DNA from: an uncultured archaeon
Lineage (GTDB): Archaea > Asgardarchaeota > Lokiarchaeia > Sigyniarchaeales > SOKP01
Length of the DNA stretch: 26,406 bases
Direction: 5' to 3'
Assembly: GCA_964525635.1 (NCBI GenBank)
Contig: CAZGJX010000055.1
Span: 1 to 26,406 of the forward strand
This document shows, piece after piece, positions 9,485 through 24,128 of this stretch. Position 1 is the stretch's first letter; each line of letters opens with the position of its first letter. The notes beneath the pieces are model-generated. The model saw nothing but the letters and a program-made list of their open reading frames with translations, searched no databases and was not told where the DNA came from. The position numbers and the translations under genes were made by a program.

Positions 9485-12400
9485 TTAAATGACTTCAGAT
9501 AAAAATTGAAAATAAAATAAAGCAAGTGTAATAATCAACATAATAATGAAAAATATAGTTGAATAAAAACGCCATTTGATAGAGATTTCTTCTTTCTTCT
9601 CTTTATAATAGATATATGGGAGAAAAATAGCACCAAATATAGTAAAGGATAAAAATATAGCTATTAAATAAAATTTAAATTCAAAATAATATAAAATAAT
9701 TCCAAGAACTGAAATCCAAGCACTACTTAGATACATAATTCTATATTTTAAAAGTTTATCTGGTTCCATATCTGACACTTGTTTTGATATATTATAATAT
9801 ATAAGAGAGATTGTTATGCCAACGCTTATTATTACTGAATATAACCAATAAAGTTTTACATATATAAATAAAACAATAAAAATAGAAATTCCAAAAGAAA
9901 CTGAAAAGAAAGTCCAGATATAAATCCAATATCGTTTTAAAAAGTGGATAATCCCCTTAAAAAACATTAAAATCTTATTTATAATCAAAATAATAATCTT
10001 TTTTAAATTATCAATAAACTTGTTGAAAAAATTCTTTATTTGTTCCATAAGAAAAATAAATGGATATAATAATATGGAAAAAATAAGAAATGAGAGGCTA
10101 GAAATTAATGGAAAATAATTATAGTAAAAACTAATTTGGAAAATAATCGTACCAAATAATGTAAATATTAAAAGCCAGATAAGAAATGAGAATTTCTTAG
10201 ATTTTTCTGTAAAAACTTTAAAATATATTGCATATAAAAATAAGAGAATAACTAGAGAAATATTAATATTGAAATAGTTATTAAATAAAAAGAAGTTTGG
10301 ACTTAAAAAAGCTTCAGATAATACAAAGAAATCTAAACATAAAAGATTTATAAAAATGAATTGCATATACCGATTTAGTTTATATATTAATTTACTCTGA
10401 TGATCTTGTAATATATCAATAAAATATAGAAGAATTATGAAGATTAATAATGAAAGAATTATTAAATTCAAATCTAAAATAAGATCTTGACTAAAATAAA
10501 ATAATGGAAAACTAATTATATCAAAAGTTAAAAATGTATAAATATAAGATCTAATTCTATTTTTATTATTTTTAAAAACTTTCCAGATTGTTAAAAGATG
10601 GAATAGATATATAAGTTCAAGTCCTCCTAATAAGAACACTATTGGGATTCTAATTAATATTAATTGGAGATTATGAGTTGGGAATGAAATAAAAATCAAG
10701 AAATTTGAAGAAATCATAATAGAACTCCATGAGATGATTTTAATATATTTTGTGACTTCTTCCATGAATTTTAATATACTTTTATCTAATAGACATATCA
10801 GAAATATTATATTACTTAAAACAAATATTTGAATCGATATTTCTATGAAATTAATTAACTCTTGAAATAAGATTAATAAGAAGAAGTAAAAACAGACCCC
10901 AATTATAATCTTTCTCTGTTTATATTTAATATTAATTTTAGATAATTTATCTCTTGAGATATATTTATTTTGAGGATGTTCTGCAGTTCTAAAATTTAAA
11001 TATAAATAATTAGTTATGAATTGCATAATAATAAATAGAAGAGAATACAATTTTAGATGAACTAGTGAAAATTGGGAATAATCATTTAATGCAATGAAAC
11101 TTGAGAAAGATAAAATTAACATTAGAATAGTTAACTGTAAAAAACCATATTTCTTGCCAACTATTTGAAGTAAATATACATCAATCAATAATAAAATGAC
11201 ATATAAAATCAATGTTATTGAAAGACTAATGTATAAATCAAAAATACTGATTACGAATGAAAATATTAGGAAATTTAAATAAAAGTAAATTACATTACCT
11301 AAAAAGGAGAGAAATTTTTTGTAAAAAATGGGTAATTTCTGTTGTATTTTAAATATATTGATAAAGTATATTGAGAGAAACAATAATCCTACATTTAAAA
11401 ATATTATAAGATTAATTGATAATAAATCTAAATCTCCATAAATTAGAACTAAATTGATTAAATTTAGAGTAAGAGAAATTTGAAATATAAGAAAGACTAT
11501 AGATTTAATGAAATTTAGTATTTTTTCCTGATATATATTTAATATTATACTATAAAATAAAAGGATTGCTGAAAACCAGAAAATAAAAAGATTATAGAAG
11601 TTAATTTGATTTATATGCAATTCAGGTATCAGATTAATGGTAGTTTGAGATATAAAAGAAGACATCATTCCTATAATTAGGAAATATGTTAAATATGTTA
11701 AAACTGTTTGAAATTTGAATAATATATTTATTTTATTTTTCATTAATCGTTGGCTTAGCATTAAAGCGAATATATTTAGTCCTAAAGATATTAGGAGAAA
11801 AATAAAGATTTGAGTTAATATTGCAATAGAAGAAAAATCCAATAACAATAGAAAAATCAATATAGCTATTGAATTATTAAGTAATATTAATGATAATATA
11901 CTAATTTTTTTATTTAGCTCTCCTGTAAAATGTTTAAAAAAGTATATATTAAGGATAAGCTCTAGCGTTAATATACCATTGAAAATAATCATAATCAATA
12001 ATGTAAGATAAGGTAATGTAAAACTGGTACTAATAAAAACATTCCATATTAGACTCAAAATAGATGATGGAATAAGAATGTAAAATAATCCTCCAATGTT
12101 TTCTAAAATCCAATTTATTCCTTTTATATTTAAAATCTCTTTATTTTTCCTTAAATAATAAAATATAAATAAATTCAATATAGAATACACAAAAATGAAC
12201 CCAAATATTTGGTAGAATAAAGAATTAAAACAAAAAACTGAAATTAAGAGAGAAAAATAAAAATTATTAAGACTGAAACATAAAAGATTTATTATTTTTA
12301 TTTTTCTATTGTTTTCAAAAGGTTTTATAAATTCATCTCTGATATTAAATACAACTTGGAGAATGATAAGATAAGACATTAAATAGATAAAAATTGTAAA

Positions 12401-15400
12401 GATGTTGAAGAATTTAACGAAGTCATAAATCTCGAGAATTTCAAGAATTAAAAATGATAAAGGAATGGGATTTAAATATATTAATAGGTATTTTGAATGA
12501 TATAAAATTTTATGAATAAATAAAATTGTAATTGAAGAAGAAATTGCTAATAATAAGAATAGATAATATGGAATTACCAAATATAAAATAGTAAAAATTG
12601 AAAATGATAGACTTATCCCAAATAATAACCATAGTATTTCAATAGGTATTCTTCTAAAGATTAAATAAAAATAGTTAAAAAGAAATAGAAATCCAAAACA
12701 AAAAGTCATAGCTAATGAGATCGATAGAACCTCCATATTTGGTATTAAATTTAATGAAAAATGAATTAAAGATGAGGAATTAACAATAAAATTCAATGAA
12801 ATAAAAGTACGAATTAGGGGTTGATTAATCTTCTTTAGATATCTTGAAGTATATAATCCTCCAGAAATTATAATAGCTGATAAATTAAAAGATATCACTT
12901 GATTTAAAATGATTTCTGATAATATAAAATAAATTGTTAAAAAAAGTCCAATAAAAATCATAGAATATGAAATAATTAATATCAAAATATATGTTCTAAC
13001 GTTTGGAAAAATTGAATAGACAATCAAAAAAATACCACAAACAATGATATCAATCGAAATTATTAGTTCGATAGTGAAATTCATTGAAGCTAAGAAAAAT
13101 ATTAAAAAGCTTACATTTAATACAATTAATATTAACCAAATAAAAGATAAGATCCTCCATAATTTTAATCTCCAAAAGATTGGTGTTAATAAAAAGAATG
13201 AAGAAAGCCCAAAGAATAGATTTGAAAGTAGCATATTATCAATAAATAAGTTTTGACTTATCCAAAATGTTAATGCTAATGATTCACCCCATACTATAAG
13301 CAAAATTTCAGTAAAGTACTTTTTAATTTTTGAAAATAAAATAGGAAGATAAAATAAAGAACAGATTATAAATGTTATAATAATAGACCCATTTATATCA
13401 AATAAATTAAAGAAATCTAATGCTTGAGTGAATATATCTATACCTAAGACATTATTATAAATTATATAAAAATTAATAATTGGTACAAATAACAATATTC
13501 GCCATCCAACTCTCCAGATGGCCCATGATATCTTCCATTTATAAATTCCAACTGAAATGAAAAATAAAAAGATTATCGCATCAAGAATTATTATTATTAA
13601 TATAGGATCTCCAAAATAAAATCCAAAATAAGAGATCAGTAATGTGTAAATGAATCCTGGGATGAAAAGAGTTATAGTAGTTAAAGATATATAAAATATC
13701 AGTTTCCTTAATGATTTGGAAAGTTTATTAAATAAGAATATGACTCCAAAAGATGTGAATATTGATGTTAAAGCGAATGTTAAAATAATGTTATATAATT
13801 GATAACTTGAGTCAGTAAATAAAAAAGAATATGAAATCCAACTGGAAATATTAAATAATAAAAGGATAATACAAGGCTTAATGAACCATTTATACCTTTT
13901 ATCTTCCCTTAAATAATAATCAAAGGTAACTATAAATAGGAAAACTAAAATGGATATTGTTATATTATATATGAGTAGTATTCTTGTAAAATTAAATATA
14001 AAAATAAATAAAATGCTTGAAATTAAAGAATAAAATAGATACTTTTCAATTAGGTTTATTTTCTTGTAATTTATACCCACTGAAAAAATCAATACTAAAC
14101 TGAAATTCATTAAAAAAATAATTAAAATAATACAAATAGGATATCCCATCACTACTTCTAATAACGATGTTGCTTCAAAAAAATTAAGAATTTTGATAAA
14201 TCCAACGAAACTAAGAATAACATATATTAAAAATCTAATTATTAGATTCTCTTTCCTTTCTAATGATATTATGGTATATAAAATGAATAATACAAGAATG
14301 GAATAGTCAGCATTTAGAAACAAAATACTAAAACTAATCAATAAAGTCTTTATAACTAAAATATAAAATTTCTTAAGATACTCCTTTTGATTTTTTTCAT
14401 TATTATTGATATAATAACATAAATTGATTAATATTAAACTAAAGATAAATAGGATATTTGTCATTAAATCACTAATATAGATAAACCAGTATAATTCCGT
14501 AAAGATAATATTGGTTATAATTAAATATAATAGAGGTGAAATCTTTTTTGATAAAATATTAAAAATTTTTTTTTTTGTATATCCCTGATTAAATATAATA
14601 ATTAATGGATGGAATATATTCAAAAATAACATAAACAATAGACAAAAATTCAATATTTCTAACTCTACCACTGGAATAGGAACTATATTGCTAAGTAGAA
14701 ATATAGATGCTAAAATAAATGAAGATGAAATGATGATCCCACTGGATTGAATAGATTTAAACGAGTTTCCTATTTTTTGAACTTTTTGAAAAGACTCAGG
14801 TTTTTGAATTGAATTGTAATAATAACCAAGATTTCCTATCAATTTAATATTATAGGAATTAATCATGAAAAGAGATAAAATTGAACAATTGATTATTAAA
14901 AAATCCCTTAAATATGTATCTGACCATTCTATTAATACAAGGTTTTCATATAGGATATATCCAATTGAAAAGCTAAGTAAAAACCAACTAATAATTAGGA
15001 TTAATTTAATATATGATAGTATAATTGATTCCAATCTTATTTTTTCACTTGAAAATTCCGCAAGTTTAAGAAACAGGAATAATAAAATAAGAGACAGAAT
15101 GATAATATAAATAAAATTGACATAAATATCTATTGCTTGTAATTCTAACCATATAAAAGTAGGGATAGATATAAATAAAAAACATAATAGAAAAATATCA
15201 CACAGAATTAACTTTTGAATAAATTTCTTGTTAAAAATACCTTTTTTATAAGAAAGGATAAAAAGACCATATAAATAAAAAAGAGTACTAATTATTGGGA
15301 AAATTATTTTAATGAAATGCCCAGGAATTAAAATAAATAGATAATAAAAAATAGTCGTTCCTGCTAATATAATACCTATGACAATATCTAATTTCAAAAT

Positions 15401-17887
15401 GATTTTAGCAGTTTTTTCTAAATTATTTTTTTTTCCTAAAAGATAAAACATGAAAAGAATTGTTAATAAGAGATATAAACTCAAATTAACTATATGTATA
15501 ACATCTACATAAATGTATGATTTAGCTAATTCAAATGAAATTATAGAAGGAATAAATATACAAGAAATTGATAAAATGATATTATTGCCTACTAAAACCT
15601 TTTTAAAGATATTCCTTTTAACATTATTTTTTAAGAGATATATAATACATAAATTAAAAGAAATACTAAAAAGAATTAAAGGTAAAATAAAGATATAAGT
15701 AGTGTCTAAAGTAAATAAGAACGAATAATAAAATATAAGAGAAGAGAGATAAAATAAACTAATTGAATTAACAAAAATCGTATATTTCTTAATAATTGAT
15801 TGATAATACCAGTTTAGAATATTGATTATTATTGCTGAAGTTGCAATTGACAAAAATAATGATAAAAAAACGTTGAATAAGAATTGAAAATAGGAAATAA
15901 GAAAAATAATTATTGAAATTTCAATAGATATTAAAAATAAGTTTATTTTAGTAAGTTTATCATATTTTTTGACTTTTAATTTATCTAATTGTAGCCCAAA
16001 TTTTAATTGAAATTGAATGGAAATTGATAAAATCAATAGACTAAATATAAATATTAAGATTAACAAATCTATTTTGTATAAATTAATAGAATCTAACCAG
16101 ATATTTGAAATAAAGATAAAATATACATATATTAAAGGAAATAAAAGCCATATAGAGTAATAAATATGAATTAAGACGTTCGTAATAATCTTAAATTCAT
16201 AATTAATATAAATAAAAACTATATATATGAAAATAAAAATAATACCGGAAAGTAAAATAAATGAAATAAGATGTATCAAATCAAGAGTATTGAATATAAA
16301 TGTATTAATTAGTAATACAATCAGTAAATCTAGTAATAAAAAATTAAAAATAATTGTTAATTTGAATGTGCTTATATATTTTTGCTTAAAAAATTTTGAA
16401 TAAAGCCTATAAAATGAAATCAATAAAGAAAAGGAAAAAAATATACAGAAAATTAGAATTCTAGAAATTAGTAAAATATCAGAATCTAAAATTAACAAAA
16501 AATCTTCAGTAGTTATGAGAGGATAAACCGAATATGATATTGAGAAGAAAATAAATACAGAAAGAAAATTCTGCCAAAGAATTACTTTTTCTTCAGTAAA
16601 GAGATTAATTCTTTTAAATAATTCTAAAGCAAAATATATTAATATTGTAAAAAAAGCCATTTGAATAATTAAAGTAATTGTTTCCCAATATATTGGAAAA
16701 AAAATAAAAGAAATATATCCTATTGAGATAATGGTTAAAATAAAATAAAGAAACTCAATATTCTTCTTTTGTATATAGTTATAATTATGTTCTAAATAAA
16801 TTATAAAGTAAAAAATAGGTATTAAAATAAAATTAAGATAATTTAAATCAATTAGATAAAACAATAATATAAATATAATCAGTAAAATGAATGAAATGAT
16901 TCCATTATAGTTTTGATATTTTAATATCTTCTTATTATCTATATTTTCTCCATTTGGTGTTTTATTTAATATCAATGAGTCTAATTTCATTTCATAGGAC
17001 AAATAAGAGATAATCCTTGCCTTTAAGTATAAGAAAAAGATAGCTAAAATGATTGATACATAAGATACTATTTCTAAATAATTATTAAATCCCTTCAGTG
17101 AAATTAAATAAATATTTAAAGAAGGTAGAAGAATGATAATACTGAAAATATAACTCTCTAATGAGATAAAAGTTTTTTTATTAAACTTTAAGATTATTTG
17201 TTTTAAATTTAATTGATTATCTTCTATTTGAGTATATTCAGCAAATAATTTTCTTTCTTTTTTTGTATAAAATACAGTAATAATATAAAAAAAACAACTG
17301 AAAAATAATACTAATCCAATTGTAAGATAAATAACGTTAGCAGTAAAAATAAAAACAATGATATTTGAAAAGCAATTGATAATAAAGAGATATTTATAAG
17401 TGTCTTTGATTGATAATTGAGGATAAATATCCAAAAAAGTATCTTTCTCTGAACTATAAAATAAGATTGGTGTGTATTTTAAATAAAAAAACACAACAGG
17501 TATTGCAAAACAAATATAGATAAGAGGGATTAATTGAAATTTTAAATCTAATGGATTTAATAATGTAAAGAATATTGAACTAACGAAATAGACAATATAA
17601 ATTAAAAAGATTACAGAGATTTTTATTATTAGATTTTTTTTTTCATTACCAAAAAATGGATTTTTTCTATACTTATCATAAAGTTTAAAGAATACAAATT
17701 GAGAAGTAATGAAGGAAACAAATGAAAAGGATAATATATAATAAAAATCTTCAAGAAAATTTGAAAGTATAAAATACGTAACTACCAATGACAATGATGG
17801 TATAATTAAAAAATATACACAAAACCACCATATTTTCCATATTATTTCTGTAGCTTTCTCTATTTTCTTATTTGAATTTCGTTCCAT
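9485..17887 (-). CDS. Giant polytopic membrane protein of unknown function (~2800 aa)
   Basis: Uninterrupted 8.4-kb ORF in very AT-rich DNA. Continuous alternation of hydrophobic ~20-mers and short K/N-rich loops. ATG 17887 follows a purine-rich AGAAGGCGA; the alternative start is TTG 17908. Confidence 0.9.
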   Translation of the reverse strand: MERNSNKKIEKATEIIWKIWWFCVYFLIIPSLSLVVTYFILSNFLEDFYYILSFSFVSFITSQFVFFKLYDKYRKNPFFGNEKKNLIIKISVIFLIYIVYFVSSIFFTLLNPLDLKFQLIPLIYICFAIPVVFFYLKYTPILFYSSEKDTFLDIYPQLSIKDTYKYLFIINCFSNIIVFIFTANVIYLTIGLVLFFSCFFYIITVFYTKKERKLFAEYTQIEDNQLNLKQIILKFNKKTFISLESYIFSIIILLPSLNIYLISLKGFNNYLEIVSYVSIILAIFFLYLKARIISYLSYEMKLDSLILNKTPNGENIDNKKILKYQNYNGIISFILLIIFILLFYLIDLNYLNFILIPIFYFIIYLEHNYNYIQKKNIEFLYFILTIISIGYISFIFFPIYWETITLIIQMAFFTILIYFALELFKRINLFTEEKVILWQNFLSVFIFFSISYSVYPLITTEDFLLILDSDILLISRILIFCIFFSFSLLISFYRLYSKFFKQKYISTFKLTIIFNFLLLDLLIVLLINTFIFNTLDLIHLISFILLSGIIFIFIYIVFIYINYEFKIITNVLIHIYYSIWLLFPLIYVYFIFISNIWLDSINLYKIDLLILIFIFSLLILSISIQFQLKFGLQLDKLKVKKYDKLTKINLFLISIEISIIIFLISYFQFLFNVFLSLFLSIATSAIIINILNWYYQSIIKKYTIFVNSISLFYLSSLIFYYSFLFTLDTTYIFILPLILFSISFNLCIIYLLKNNVKRNIFKKVLVGNNIILSISCIFIPSIISFELAKSYIYVDVIHIVNLSLYLLLTILFMFYLLGKKNNLEKTAKIILKLDIVIGIILAGTTIFYYLFILIPGHFIKIIFPIISTLFYLYGLFILSYKKGIFNKKFIQKLILCDIFLLCFLFISIPTFIWLELQAIDIYVNFIYIIILSLILLFLFLKLAEFSSEKIRLESIILSYIKLILIISWFLLSFSIGYILYENLVLIEWSDTYLRDFLIINCSILSLFMINSYNIKLIGNLGYYYNSIQKPESFQKVQKIGNSFKSIQSSGIIISSSFILASIFLLSNIVPIPVVELEILNFCLLFMLFLNIFHPLIIIFNQGYTKKKIFNILSKKISPLLYLIITNIIFTELYWFIYISDLMTNILFIFSLILINLCYYINNNEKNQKEYLKKFYILVIKTLLISFSILFLNADYSILVLFILYTIISLERKENLIIRFLIYVILSFVGFIKILNFFEATSLLEVVMGYPICIILIIFLMNFSLVLIFSVGINYKKINLIEKYLFYSLISSILFIFIFNFTRILLIYNITISILVFLFIVTFDYYLREDKRYKWFIKPCIILLLFNISSWISYSFLFTDSSYQLYNIILTFALTSIFTSFGVIFLFNKLSKSLRKLIFYISLTTITLFIPGFIYTLLISYFGFYFGDPILIIIILDAIIFLFFISVGIYKWKISWAIWRVGWRILLFVPIINFYIIYNNVLGIDIFTQALDFFNLFDINGSIIITFIICSLFYLPILFSKIKKYFTEILLIVWGESLALTFWISQNLFIDNMLLSNLFFGLSSFFLLTPIFWRLKLWRILSFIWLILIVLNVSFLIFFLASMNFTIELIISIDIIVCGIFLIVYSIFPNVRTYILILIISYSMIFIGLFLTIYFILSEIILNQVISFNLSAIIISGGLYTSRYLKKINQPLIRTFISLNFIVNSSSLIHFSLNLIPNMEVLSISLAMTFCFGFLFLFNYFYLIFRRIPIEILWLLFGISLSFSIFTILYLVIPYYLFLLLAISSSITILFIHKILYHSKYLLIYLNPIPLSFLILEILEIYDFVKFFNIFTIFIYLMSYLIILQVVFNIRDEFIKPFENNRKIKIINLLCFSLNNFYFSLLISVFCFNSLFYQIFGFIFVYSILNLFIFYYLRKNKEILNIKGINWILENIGGLFYILIPSSILSLIWNVFISTSFTLPYLTLLIMIIFNGILTLELILNIYFFKHFTGELNKKISILSLILLNNSIAILIFLLLLDFSSIAILTQIFIFLLISLGLNIFALMLSQRLMKNKINILFKFQTVLTYLTYFLIIGMMSSFISQTTINLIPELHINQINFYNLFIFWFSAILLFYSIILNIYQEKILNFIKSIVFLIFQISLTLNLINLVLIYGDLDLLSINLIIFLNVGLLFLSIYFINIFKIQQKLPIFYKKFLSFLGNVIYFYLNFLIFSFVISIFDLYISLSITLILYVILLLIDVYLLQIVGKKYGFLQLTILMLILSFSSFIALNDYSQFSLVHLKLYSLLFIIMQFITNYLYLNFRTAEHPQNKYISRDKLSKINIKYKQRKIIIGVCFYFFLLILFQELINFIEISIQIFVLSNIIFLICLLDKSILKFMEEVTKYIKIISWSSIMISSNFLIFISFPTHNLQLILIRIPIVFLLGGLELIYLFHLLTIWKVFKNNKNRIRSYIYTFLTFDIISFPLFYFSQDLILDLNLIILSLLIFIILLYFIDILQDHQSKLIYKLNRYMQFIFINLLCLDFFVLSEAFLSPNFFLFNNYFNINISLVILLFLYAIYFKVFTEKSKKFSFLIWLLIFTLFGTIIFQISFYYNYFPLISSLSFLIFSILLYPFIFLMEQIKNFFNKFIDNLKKIIILIINKILMFFKGIIHFLKRYWIYIWTFFSVSFGISIFIVLFIYVKLYWLYSVIISVGITISLIYYNISKQVSDMEPDKLLKYRIMYLSSAWISVLGIILYYFEFKFYLIAIFLSFTIFGAIFLPYIYYKEKKEEISIKWRFYSTIFFIIMLIITLALFYFQFLSEVI

Positions 17888-18030
17888 TGAATCGCCTTCT
17901 ACAATCAATAAATTGATCTATTATTCATATGTAAAATCACTTTTTTAAATCTATCTAATTTTAAAGTAATATAAATTATATTGAATTATAAATTCTTGAA
18001 ACTGTTATTTAATGATTTCTATAAACCTTA
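17656..18030. repeat. Copy 1 of a ~375-bp diverged duplication (upstream region plus first ~77 codons of the giant gene)
   Basis: Aligns with 18189-18563 at an offset of ~533 nt, e.g. gaattataaattcttga and ttatttaatgatttctataaa occur in both. Confidence 0.9.
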
Positions 18031-18174
18031 AAAATATATATATATAATCATTCATCAATAGATTATCTCCTGTAAATTTGACAATAGATGATTATGACTA
18101 TATTATATTTAAAAGAAGTACAATATCTTCATTAATATGGGAGATTTTATTCCATAATTGGATTAGATATCTTT

Positions 18175-18420
18175 TTAAATTATGATGTATGAATTTTTTT
18201 TATACTTATGATAAAGTATAAAGAGTAAAAATTTAGATATAATGAAGGAAACAAATGATAGGGATAATATATAATAAAAATCAAGAAGAAGATCTGAGAG
18301 GATAAAAAATGTAACTACCATTATTAATAGTGGTATAATTAAAAAATATGCAGAAAACCACCATATTTTCCATCTTTTTTCTGTAACATTCTCTATTTTC
18401 TCATCTGAATTATAAACCAT
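18175..18420 (-). CDS. 81-aa two-TM paralog (or remnant) of the giant protein's N-terminus
   Basis: WKIWWFSAYFLIIP...DFYYILSLSFVSFI versus WKIWWFCVYFLIIP...DFYYILSFSFVSFI. ATG 18420 is homologous to ATG 17887. Confidence 0.65.
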   Translation of the reverse strand: MVYNSDEKIENVTEKRWKIWWFSAYFLIIPLLIMVVTFFILSDLLLDFYYILSLSFVSFIISKFLLFILYHKYKKNSYIII

Positions 18421-18563
18421 TGAAATCTCTTCTATATACAATAAATTAATCAATTTACTATATGCAATAGCATTTTTTTAAATTAAATAAGTATTCAAGT
18501 AAAAAAAAAGTAATGAATTATAAATTCTTGAGACTATTATTTAATGATTTCTATAAATCCTTA
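18189..18563. repeat. Copy 2 of the ~375-bp duplication
   Basis: Aligns with 17656-18030 in both coding and upstream parts. Confidence 0.9.
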
Positions 18564-22623: not shown

Positions 22624-23640
22624 TTATTGGTTTATCAAGTTGTTTATAACTAATTCAGAAATATCACCCGCATATTCACCTATTCTCCTTATACTTTCAA
22701 TAATATAACTGATGGTAATCGATGATTCAACATGATATTGTTCAGGATTAATTGTTATTCCTTCACAGGCAATTACTAATTTCTTTACTAACTCAATATT
22801 CTCATTTGCCATACGTATATCTTTATTCATACGAGCATCTAAAGTTTTATTTAAAAGATCAATAGAAATTCTGCTTGCTGCTGATATTTTTTCTATTAAC
22901 TCTTTACTGATAACATTTTGCTCAATCACAAAAAGAATATTTCTAGAAATATTAACTGCGTGGTCTGCTATTCTTTCCAGAAATCGACTCATTAATTGAT
23001 AATGGTTTGCATCCTCTAAGGTAATTCCCATTTTCTGTGATAAGATTATATCTCTTAAAACAATATTTGATTGTCTTCCAATCAACCAATGCAATCTATC
23101 TATATCATTATCTCTTTTAATAACTTCTTCAGCTAATTCTTTATCCTTTGTTTTTAAAGCTTTAATAGCATCTTCAATCATACTATCTGCAAGAATAAAC
23201 ATTCTTTTTATTGTTTTATCAAATGGCATTTCCTTTGGATTCAATAAATCTTTAATAAGAATATATGTATTTGTTTCTTCAATAATTTCTGGTCCGATTG
23301 CTATTTGTGTAAAATCAATTATACAATCTCTAATAAATGGCTCAAATTTTTTACTGGATTTTATAACAACCTTAGAAAATCCCATAATATATATACCTAT
23401 CAATACTCGAAATAAGAAATTATAATCATTATAATCATCTACAATGATTTCTTTGGTTTTCATAATTTCCTCAGAGTTGATTTTTGGCGTAATAAGTAAA
23501 TTCCCATCAGGCTGTGCTATAATTCCGATGGTATCATTTTTTTGAATATTATTTTTCTTTATCCAAGGCTTCGGAAGACTAATAATGTAAGACGATCCCC
23601 CCGTCTGTTGCACCTTACGTGTCTCAATATTATATGTCAA
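22624..23640 (-). CDS. phoU: Archaeal phosphate uptake regulator (AbrB-type DNA-binding domain + PhoU domains), ~338 aa
   Basis: ETRKVQQTGGSSYIISLPKPW (AbrB/SpoVT), RDNDIDRL, LERIADHA, IRRIGEY. TTG at 23640 is preceded by AGGTGA at 10-nt spacing; the longer tracked N-terminus (to 23799) looks like intergenic DNA. Confidence 0.92.
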   Translation of the reverse strand: MTYNIETRKVQQTGGSSYIISLPKPWIKKNNIQKNDTIGIIAQPDGNLLITPKINSEEIMKTKEIIVDDYNDYNFLFRVLIGIYIMGFSKVVIKSSKKFEPFIRDCIIDFTQIAIGPEIIEETNTYILIKDLLNPKEMPFDKTIKRMFILADSMIEDAIKALKTKDKELAEEVIKRDNDIDRLHWLIGRQSNIVLRDIILSQKMGITLEDANHYQLMSRFLERIADHAVNISRNILFVIEQNVISKELIEKISAASRISIDLLNKTLDARMNKDIRMANENIELVKKLVIACEGITINPEQYHVESSITISYIIESIRRIGEYAGDISELVINNLINQ

Positions 23641-23726
23641 TTCTTTTCTTTCACCTATCGCATATTTCAAGCTTTTATGTGAAACATTATAATAATTATT
23701 AAGAAAATATAGAATAACAATTTGAT

Positions 23727-23758
23727 CTATATAGTTTATATAAAATGTATATACATTT
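23727..23758. promoter_or_regulatory. Phased TATATA-core palindromes upstream of phoU, including perfect 16-bp AAATGTATATACATTT
   Basis: CTATATAG (23727-34), TTTATATAAA (23735-44) and AAATGTATATACATTT (23743-58), with centres about 10 bp apart. Confidence 0.4.
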
Positions 23759-23798
23759 AAAGATAAGGTTAAAAAAAGGGATTTTTTTCTCACTATCA

Positions 23799-24128
23799 TT
23801 AAGAGGTAACTTCGAGGTTACATATACGAAATCTACGATCATATATTACCGCATCAATATATAAATCATAAAGAAAATGATTTATGATAAGTCCTTCGGC
23901 TTCTAATTGGATATATCCCTCATAGATACACTTATACAATTGGATTTTAGTGAATCCTCCCTTAGAGGTAAAATGCTTGAAAGTTATTCTTTTTACGGGG
24001 TAATCGAATCGTATAGAGATTTTTTCCTCTCCAATTACTAGCTTATCTGGATTTTTAATCATCTCTCGAAAATCATCATGTGTAAAATGTAGTAGCCCTA
24101 CTGATTCCATATCTAATTTTAGCCTCAT
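23799..24128 (-). CDS. Hypothetical protein, 109 aa
   Basis: ATG start preceded by purine-rich GGTAAAAAGAAA. Globular composition with FDYP, GGFT and HFLYDL motifs. Confidence 0.7.
   Translation of the reverse strand: MRLKLDMESVGLLHFTHDDFREMIKNPDKLVIGEEKISIRFDYPVKRITFKHFTSKGGFTKIQLYKCIYEGYIQLEAEGLIINHFLYDLYIDAVIYDRRFRICNLEVTS

Follow-up and report, generated by a model that had tools for sequence, protein, structure and literature searches.

A giant protein with approximately 87 predicted transmembrane helices and no soluble domain, from a family of one order of Lokiarchaeia

Introduction

Piezo1 and Piezo2 contain 38 transmembrane helices per chain, with nine four-helix units in each blade. 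In bacteria, Arc3A of Pseudomonas aeruginosa (PA5114), which belongs to the DUF2339 family (PF10101), has 35 predicted helices and lacks catalytic residues; the study that describes it links its function to this unusual helix density (eLife 2022, PMC8926400). Giant proteins of Omnitrophota are predicted to contain up to 147 helices within chains of 10,000-147,000 amino acids (aa) (bioRxiv 10.1101/2023.11.21.568195, 10.64898/2026.06.07.730766). Here we analyze a giant gene on a 26,406-nucleotide stretch of DNA (contig CAZGJX010000055.1, positions 1 to 26,406; hereafter the window) from an uncultured archaeon of the Lokiarchaeia. Our data indicate that its product crosses the membrane approximately 87 times, that it belongs to a conserved family of a single archaeal order, and that members of this family differ in length by whole helical hairpins. 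We tentatively favor a structural role for this protein within the membrane.

The giant protein resembles Piezo in that it is a very large, helix-dominated chain with small modular helix units (here a four-helix duplication) and a conserved module accompanied by variable arrays. However, it contains more than twice as many helices, lacks both an extracellular cap and a long intracellular beam, and carries arms on both sides of its conserved module. Arc3A is the nearest described analogue in kind, as a "massive polytopic" protein whose helix field itself is thought to be functional (PMC8926400); it differs in being bacterial, in having 35 rather than approximately 87 helices, and in having a partner, Arc3B. 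The Omnitrophota giants are likewise predicted prokaryotic chains with very many transmembrane helices, but they are mostly extramembrane, contain many soluble domains, and have about one helix per 1,000 aa, compared to one per 32 aa here. A first-pass annotation of the window, made from the DNA letters and their translations, had set the protein beside Piezo as one of the most helix-rich chains characterized, a comparison that needs qualifying in view of the Omnitrophota proteins. What sets the protein described here apart is its helix density and its purely membrane-embedded build, not its absolute number of helices.

Results

The giant gene lies on the minus strand (9485..17908) and comprises 2,807 codons from a TTG at 17908 to a stop at 9485-9487. 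An alternative ATG start at 17887 (codon 8) gives a protein of 2,800 aa, as in public gene calls (database copy P0002), and this version coincides exactly with the interval 9485-17887 in which the first-pass annotation had placed an open reading frame (ORF) of about 2,800 aa. The frame is single and intact, and an ORF search of the other five frames over the 8.4 kb of the gene returned no ORF of at least 100 aa. Since the DNA is only 20% G+C, an open frame of 8.4 kb is not a product of chance. The G+C content of the gene is 20.3%, compared to 26.9% for the remainder of the window, and 53% of its second codon positions are T. Isoleucine (19.6%), leucine (16.9%), and phenylalanine (12.5%) together make up 49% of the protein, which contains 74 charge-free stretches of at least 15 aa. 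The low G+C content is thus a consequence of the amino acid make-up of the protein rather than of foreign origin.

We modeled two large parts of the protein with AlphaFold2 from the family alignment. Both models are all-helical with 26 helices each: aa 1190-1960 with a predicted local distance difference test score (pLDDT) of 83.4 and a predicted template modeling score (pTM) of 0.59, and aa 1961-2807 with a pLDDT of 80.7 and a pTM of 0.46. The helices are of membrane-spanning length, and the sole beta element is a small hairpin at aa ~1497-1505. As a check that is independent of hydrophobicity, we counted lysine and arginine residues in the 51 loops between these 52 helices: the odd loops, 26 in number, contain 65 altogether, and the 25 even ones contain 4. 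Since the alternation expected from the positive-inside rule holds across 51 consecutive loops, every one of the 52 helices spans the membrane, running alternately up and down. A topology model of the semi-Markov type with inside, helix, and outside states, trained on the 52-helix part, placed 35 more helices in aa 1-1199, for a total of approximately 87, with the N-terminus inside. Shuffled chains of the same composition give 77-89 helices under the same counting, so that little can be concluded from the number of helices by itself; in its agreement with the topology grammar, the real chain exceeds the shuffles by a z-score of 13.7 for the N-terminal 1,199 aa, on which the model was not trained, and of 23 overall.

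Under this topology model 69% of residues lie within helix cores, and there is one helix per 32 aa. Loops have a median length of 12 aa inside and 5 aa outside, the longest outside loop measures 22 aa, and lysine and arginine number 170 inside and 3 outside. The last helices are separated by loops of 4-17 aa, and the longest extramembrane piece of the whole chain, aa 2621-2661, measures 41 aa. Our data show that the giant protein is a polytopic alpha-helical protein of approximately 87 strictly alternating helices, with basic loops inside, short uncharged loops outside, and no soluble domain. The first-pass annotation had likewise described a chain that is rich in transmembrane helices throughout and lacks a large soluble domain; its count by eye of 70-80 helices was slightly low, so that the predicted number rose rather than fell on closer analysis.

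We next asked how widely the protein occurs. A word-indexed search returned 86 homologues of 1,600-3,750 aa. Each is encoded in an Asgard metagenome-assembled genome, is annotated as hypothetical, and lacks a precomputed Pfam domain. The 76 relatives of at least 2,400 aa are colinear with the query over its whole length. Identity to intact orthologues, which occur in more than 100 genomes, is 31-57%, and more than 160 columns of the family alignment reach at least 85% identity. A hidden Markov model of the central, best-conserved part of the protein, referred to here as the hub (profile A1), matched 56 proteins among 1.84 billion representatives; all are giants or contig-end fragments, those that are named are all Asgard proteins, and the hub did not occur among these representatives as a short protein of its own. 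In a set of 400 Asgard genomes the same profile matched 117, mostly with one match per genome and all within the order of the window's own genome (101 of 134 genomes in family f1, 1 of 1 in f2, 12 of 14 in f3, and 2 of 4 in f4); the other Asgard families searched gave no match. Some NCBI records of close homologues carry the submitter labels Hodarchaeota or Thorarchaeota, which are not reconciled with this genome-based result. Our data show that the giant gene is a genuine, mostly single-copy, conserved gene of one order of Lokiarchaeia that is under constraint.

The family includes a cultured representative. DSAG12_00898 of Promethearchaeum syntrophicum MK-D1 (QEE15075.1, 3,940 aa), which we identified by exact sequence match, has a hub homologous to that of the query (query aa 1362-1771 against MK-D1 aa 2037-2449, 31.5% identity, E 6e-34). 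Its transcript level, in reads per kilobase per million mapped reads, is 152, compared to 203-317 for six neighbors (Imachi et al. 2020, Supplementary Table 3, PMC7015854); the family is therefore transcribed in culture. Thus the protein has both homologues and an expressed relative, the absence of which the first-pass annotation had said would speak against its proposal. Other long orthologues occur in Ca. Harpocratesius repetitus (MCF2139232.1, 4,296 aa) and in a closed genome of 6,035,313 bp from the same taxonomic family, which contains orthologous ORFs of 4,908 aa and ~3,150 aa. The long orthologues, annotated as hypothetical, share the all-helix build, the lysine/arginine-inside pattern, and a spacing of ~33-35 aa per helix (32 here), but have much longer arms and ~119-145 predicted helices, compared to approximately 87 here. 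These arms do not align with the query by BLAST; an intermediate sequence, P0117, links both ends. Relatives span about 79 to ~119-145 helices, the upper values being those of the MK-D1 and Ca. Harpocratesius proteins and the 4,908-aa ORF, all rough estimates from the same topology model.

To describe how family members differ in length, we tabulated insertions and deletions (indels) of at least 25 aa between the query and the 76 relatives; the counts are cells rather than events, since related sequences share indels. We found that 121 of 265 indels measure 57-72 aa, which corresponds to one helical hairpin, and smaller peaks lie at 113-136, 177-190, and 249-256 aa. Steps of hairpin size are what a topology-preserving rule, in which helices are gained or lost in even number, predicts. 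Hot spots lie at aa 600-900, 1000-1100, and 1800-2200, and none of the 76 relatives has an indel of this size in aa 1200-1800. Our data demonstrate that the arms gain or lose units of about 62 aa (i.e., one hairpin), or multiples thereof, between species.

Based on conservation and indels we divide the protein into three parts. The hub (aa 1200-1900; 12209..14311, minus strand) is the best-conserved part and contains 24 of the 26 helices modeled for aa 1190-1960. It is preceded by the N arm (aa 1-1199; 14312..17908, minus strand), which has ~35 predicted helices, a conserved block at aa ~330-700, and two of the indel hot spots (aa 600-900 and 1000-1100), and of which the first ~310 aa are absent from some relatives. 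It is followed by the C arm (aa 1901-2807; 9488..12208, minus strand), which has 28 helices, counting the last two helices of the hub model, and a conserved block at aa ~2150-2807. The proportion of helix positions at no less than 85% identity is 13.6% in the hub, compared to 3-6% in the arms. Fourteen of the 15 invariant positions that we list (W1465, P1476, N1479, P1522, W1540, P1576, W1584, W1591, F1601, S1632, P1635, Y1648, S1704, P1814, and Y2208) lie within the hub.

Conservation is distributed unevenly across the membrane as well as along the chain. Of 109 positions that are at least 90% conserved, 46 are mid-helix, 38 near helix ends, and 24 in inside loops; the single one in an outside loop is Tyr1314, even though outside loops make up 9.6% of the chain. 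This near absence of conservation on the outer face argues against an extracellular binding or catalytic site. Within the membrane the conserved hub residues are Trp, Pro, Gly, Ser, Thr, Asn, and Tyr, and the hub contains no conserved intramembrane acidic or basic residue; its conserved charges (R1218, E1288, K1340, R1401, and K1529) are all in cytoplasmic loops. Overall, the pattern fits helix packing combined with a cytoplasm-facing interface. In the C arm, the intramembrane polar positions E2210 and H2369, kept by 85-88% of family members, have Y and F instead in this clade, and W1472, which is 98% conserved, is L in this copy alone. More generally, this copy and its closest relatives carry F, L, Y, or I at several family-conserved polar or aromatic intramembrane positions (e.g., G1738 to F), replacements that could reflect AT mutational pressure, the region being ~20-27% G+C, or relaxed constraint.

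Three local features stand out, all of them at the places where the first-pass annotation had pointed to distinctive spots. The Trp-rich motif YKWKISWAIWRVGWR (aa 1456-1470; 13499..13543, minus strand) lies at a cytoplasmic loop/helix junction of the hub, within the most conserved part of the family, and its residues Y1456, W1458, S1461, W1465, and G1468 are 90-100% conserved. The cytoplasmic amphipathic helix (aa 2621-2661; 9926..10048, minus strand), which is the longest extramembrane element and precedes the last helices, is predicted by AlphaFold2 to continue a transmembrane helix as one 60-residue helix (aa 2600-2659). Its hydrophobic moment of 0.72 is the highest in the protein (99th percentile 0.53) and it is kept in the family consensus, so that the "long amphipathic stretch" noted earlier is real. 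The C-terminal cytoplasmic loop motif EKKEEISIKWRFY (aa 2770-2782; 9563..9601, minus strand) ranks, like the Trp-rich motif, with the best-conserved elements of the family: E2770, S2776, K2778, W2779, R2780, and F2781 are 90-97% conserved, with KWRF at aa 2778-2781.

We found one internal repeat that rises above shuffled sequence. Its two copies, each of about four helices, lie in the N arm (aa 741-858; 15335..15688, and aa 869-987; 14948..15304, both minus strand) at an offset of ~129 aa, with a Smith-Waterman score of 111; 200 block shuffles gave 67 +/- 10 and did not exceed 94, and a composition-corrected BLASTP self-comparison of the protein found no internal repeat. When profiles of the N block, hub, and C arm were compared with one another by hhalign, the probability was ~1%, so there is no deep duplication and the protein is not one unit repeated throughout. 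A predicted complex of the N block (aa 330-700) and C block (aa 2200-2807), meant to probe ring closure or fold-back, scored 0.12 where the mark is 0.32 and speaks neither for nor against either arrangement.

We compared the protein with known families and folds. The whole protein has no match in Pfam or NCBIfam at E<=1, which covers any catalytic family in these collections. Among PDB sequences the hub profile has no match, and the best match of the C-arm profile is a PRA1 protein at E 0.85, which is not above noise. Foldseek searches of both models against the PDB returned nothing below E 0.05, and the weak rows are TPR, HEAT, and exportin (CRM1) solenoids; such alpha-solenoid neighbors are expected for an extended array of antiparallel helices. 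VIA-align gave Z-scores of at most 10 over three-helix pieces, below the level of helical noise. In the ESM Atlas, a shape search gave template modeling scores of at most 0.26, apart from one of 0.67 on a short row, and a feature search gave an unnamed cluster at 0.87; the nearest named cluster for the hub is DUF2339 at 0.79, a chance-level value, and there is none for the C arm. Literature searches covering the family, Asgard giant membrane proteins, and the MK-D1 locus and accessions found no description. Every sequence- and model-based test applied thus places the family in no described family or fold, in agreement with the first-pass annotation, which had called the protein uncharacterized, and no full-length match to a characterized family emerged.

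Individual candidate families were also considered. Two defining features of Piezo channels are absent: no Piezo Pfam domain matches at E<=1 over the whole protein, and the predicted outside loops, of at most 22 aa, are too short for the Piezo cap, an extracellular domain of more than 200 aa between the last two helices. No Piezo chain is among the 50 matches listed in each of the four Foldseek and VIA-align searches, which used long models of 771 and 847 aa. Membership of DUF2339 is not supported either: PF10101 does not match the window's own genome at E<=10 and exceeds its cut-off of 33.6 bits in none of 201 Asgard genomes, in which three sub-threshold matches all fall in genes other than the giant. 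A polytopic DUF2339-like ORF of 972 aa (L006:196-4003, in the same-genus genome G158) overlaps the start of a Peptidase_M48 gene, scores 25 bits to PF10101, and has no counterpart in the window's own genome at E<=10. By hhalign, the hub profile matches this ORF with a probability of 0.3%, a comparison with a single sequence and of the hub only. The window also contains no Arc3B-type neighbor (PF13163), although this partner is confined to Gram-negative lineages and is therefore not strictly defining. A GT-C glycosyltransferase is not supported: there is no Pfam or NCBIfam match, and GT-C enzymes have acidic catalytic residues in a conserved extracytoplasmic loop, but the lone conserved outside-loop residue here, Tyr1314, is not acidic.

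Discussion

We hypothesized that the giant protein is a structural, membrane-embedded element whose length is tuned in hairpins and whose cytoplasmic face is conserved, rather than an enzyme or an ion-coupled transporter. We hold this reading as a tentative preference, plausible but short of probable. A long ribbon or array of hairpins would organize, stiffen, or shape a patch of membrane; the conserved cytoplasmic face, composed of the basic loops, the amphipathic helix, and the C-terminal motif, would rest against the inner leaflet or offer docking sites to partners in the cytoplasm; and length would be tuned by adding or removing hairpins. The data lean toward a structural role in that the variable arms are built of hairpins, the hub has no conserved intramembrane charge, and the outer face is unconstrained; a classical ion-coupled transporter or an outer-face enzyme fits them less well. 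The first-pass annotation had proposed a membrane-shaping scaffold, a mechanosensor, or a mega-transporter; our data do not choose among the three, beyond this lean toward a structural role and away from an ion-coupled transporter.

Several of our results weigh against this interpretation. The pTM values of the two models are just 0.59 and 0.46, and the ribbon shape is taken from fold-search neighbors rather than measured. The hub helices are less hydrophobic (mean Kyte-Doolittle 0.5-1.3) and broken by prolines, and the hub contains many conserved mid-membrane polar residues and a low-confidence model stretch (aa 1460-1530); these features would suit a channel or transporter core, or a lipid groove, as well. 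In both arms, conservation is higher in the distal blocks than in the stretches next to the hub, a pattern that a passive ribbon leaves unexplained. Across six loci there is no conserved gene neighbor that points to a partner. Finally, several f1 genomes that are 96-99% complete have no match to the hub profile; since the gene was not found in these near-complete genomes it is not needed for the basic cell plan and, although widespread, is probably dispensable. The same genomes bear on a possible link to the cell protrusions of cultured Lokiarchaeia, in view of which the first-pass annotation had considered the protein of interest.

Other explanations have to be considered, the simplest being that the frame is an artefact of AT-rich DNA or a decaying gene without a functional product. 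The extreme composition (20.3% G+C, 49% I+L+F), the ~80 "helices" that shuffled chains also yield by the counting rule, and the replacement of some family-conserved polar residues by hydrophobic ones in this copy, including W1472 to L, which is unique to it, would fit such an artefact; but an 8.4-kb stop-free frame with no rival ORF of at least 100 aa, the existence of intact orthologues in more than 100 genomes that share 31-57% identity and invariant columns, the non-random in/out grammar, and transcription of the MK-D1 orthologue refute this explanation as far as sequence can, and we regard it as hardly credible. A more serious contender, though an unlikely one, is a channel or mechanosensor working on the Piezo principle, in which a gated pathway is formed by a single hub or by several in an oligomer, and the hairpin arms act as levers that sense tension or curvature. 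The layout of a hub plus arms made of four-helix and two-helix modules would suit such a device, as would the conserved mid-membrane polar residues of the hub (N1479, N1675, N1745, S1356, T1381, and S1740), its proline-kinked, less hydrophobic helices and low-confidence region, and the conserved cytoplasmic amphipathic helix ahead of the last helices. Against it, neither the Pfam search at E<=1 nor the matches listed in the four structure searches contain Piezo, a longest loop of 41 aa makes an extramembrane cap impossible, the arms flank the hub on both sides, unlike a C-terminal pore module, and the hub has neither a conserved intramembrane charge nor a selectivity-like motif.

The helix field might instead serve as an Arc3A-like "helix sponge" that handles lipids or protects the membrane, binding or sequestering lipids or their breakdown products and buffering membrane damage. 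Arc3A is the nearest analogue in kind, with its 35 helices and no catalytic residues (PMC8926400), and DUF2339 provides the nearest named feature match for the hub in the ESM Atlas, but that match is at chance level (0.79), PF10101 is without a match in the own genome at E<=10 and below cut-off in all 201 Asgard genomes, the profile probability of the hub against the DUF2339-like ORF is 0.3%, and no Arc3B-like neighbor is present. Moreover, the phospholipase A toxins countered by Arc3A are not known to act on archaeal ether lipids. We consider such a role improbable. An enzyme or secondary transporter with the hub as its core (e.g., a transferase of the GT-C kind for sugars or lipids, or several transporter domains fused together) and the arms as accessory anchors would account for the strong conservation of the hub (13.6% vs. 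3-6% of helix positions) with its many invariant Pro, Trp, Asn, and Ser residues. It is decidedly improbable, given that there is no Pfam or NCBIfam family, no PDB sequence match, no fold match above helical noise (best Z of 10 over three helices), and no inverted or tandem repeat between blocks (hhalign ~1%); that 1 of 109 conserved positions on the outer face speaks against an extracytoplasmic active-site loop of the GT-C kind; and that the hub is devoid of conserved intramembrane acidic or basic residues. What probability these readings leave we assign to something not yet imagined.

Returning to the structural role that we favor, its boldest form would be a new integral-membrane architecture, a transmembrane hairpin solenoid of ~80 to ~145 helices that acts as an in-membrane skeleton or fence and shapes or partitions the Lokiarchaeial membrane, for example along or at the base of protrusions, by means of the conserved hub and the cytoplasmic docking face. 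We offer this as a speculative and distinctly unlikely extension.

If the predicted topology is right, these proteins are the densest transmembrane-helix arrays known and the largest among purely membrane-embedded chains, with approximately 87 helices here and an estimated 119-145 in the long orthologues, compared to 38 in Piezo. They raise the questions of how such a chain is inserted and folded and what purpose is served by keeping ~70% of residues inside the bilayer. The family is confined to the Asgard order that holds the cultured MK-D1 and, probably, Ca. Lokiarchaeum ossiferum, and the unusual membrane morphology of the cultured strains is central to models of eukaryogenesis. Since the gene is transcribed in MK-D1, the protein can be searched for directly in that organism. 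Whether scaffold, channel, or lipid handler, it would define a new protein family and could account for some of the membrane biology of those archaea that are, as far as is known, most closely related to eukaryotes.

Genomic context

The neighbors of the giant gene in the window are ordinary Asgard genes. A PAS histidine kinase and an aminotransferase gene adjoin it, and the window further encodes a proteasome alpha subunit, a Ras-family GTPase, a RadA-like protein, PolB, an MFS transporter, an M42 peptidase, and a PhoU-domain protein. The neighborhood differs at every locus examined. In MK-D1, a flotillin-type SPFH/Band 7 gene, DSAG12_00897 (L009:2207-3442), is the next gene upstream of the orthologue, in the same orientation; no flotillin gene is present beside the orthologues at loci L010, L011, and L003-L005 or in this window. 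The PhoU-domain gene of the window (22624-23799, minus strand) lies 4.7 kb upstream of the giant gene and is fused to a MazE-like domain, and a PhoU-domain gene is also found directly downstream of the Ca. Harpocratesius orthologue (L011:3022-4089). The presence of a PhoU gene near both giant genes may be residual synteny or coincidence.

The window's own genome contains one full copy of the giant gene and, just upstream of it, a short degenerate copy of its 5' end. This partial duplicate is an ORF at 18175-18453 on the minus strand, within a region of similarity to the giant gene that spans 18031-18438. The ORF has 92 codons (81 from an ATG) and duplicates the cytoplasmic N-terminal segment together with helices 1 and 2. 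Past the short ORF, the similar stretch is interrupted by six stops. The duplicate has 51% similarity to aa 2-134 of the giant protein and keeps the motifs WKIWWF and DFYYIL.

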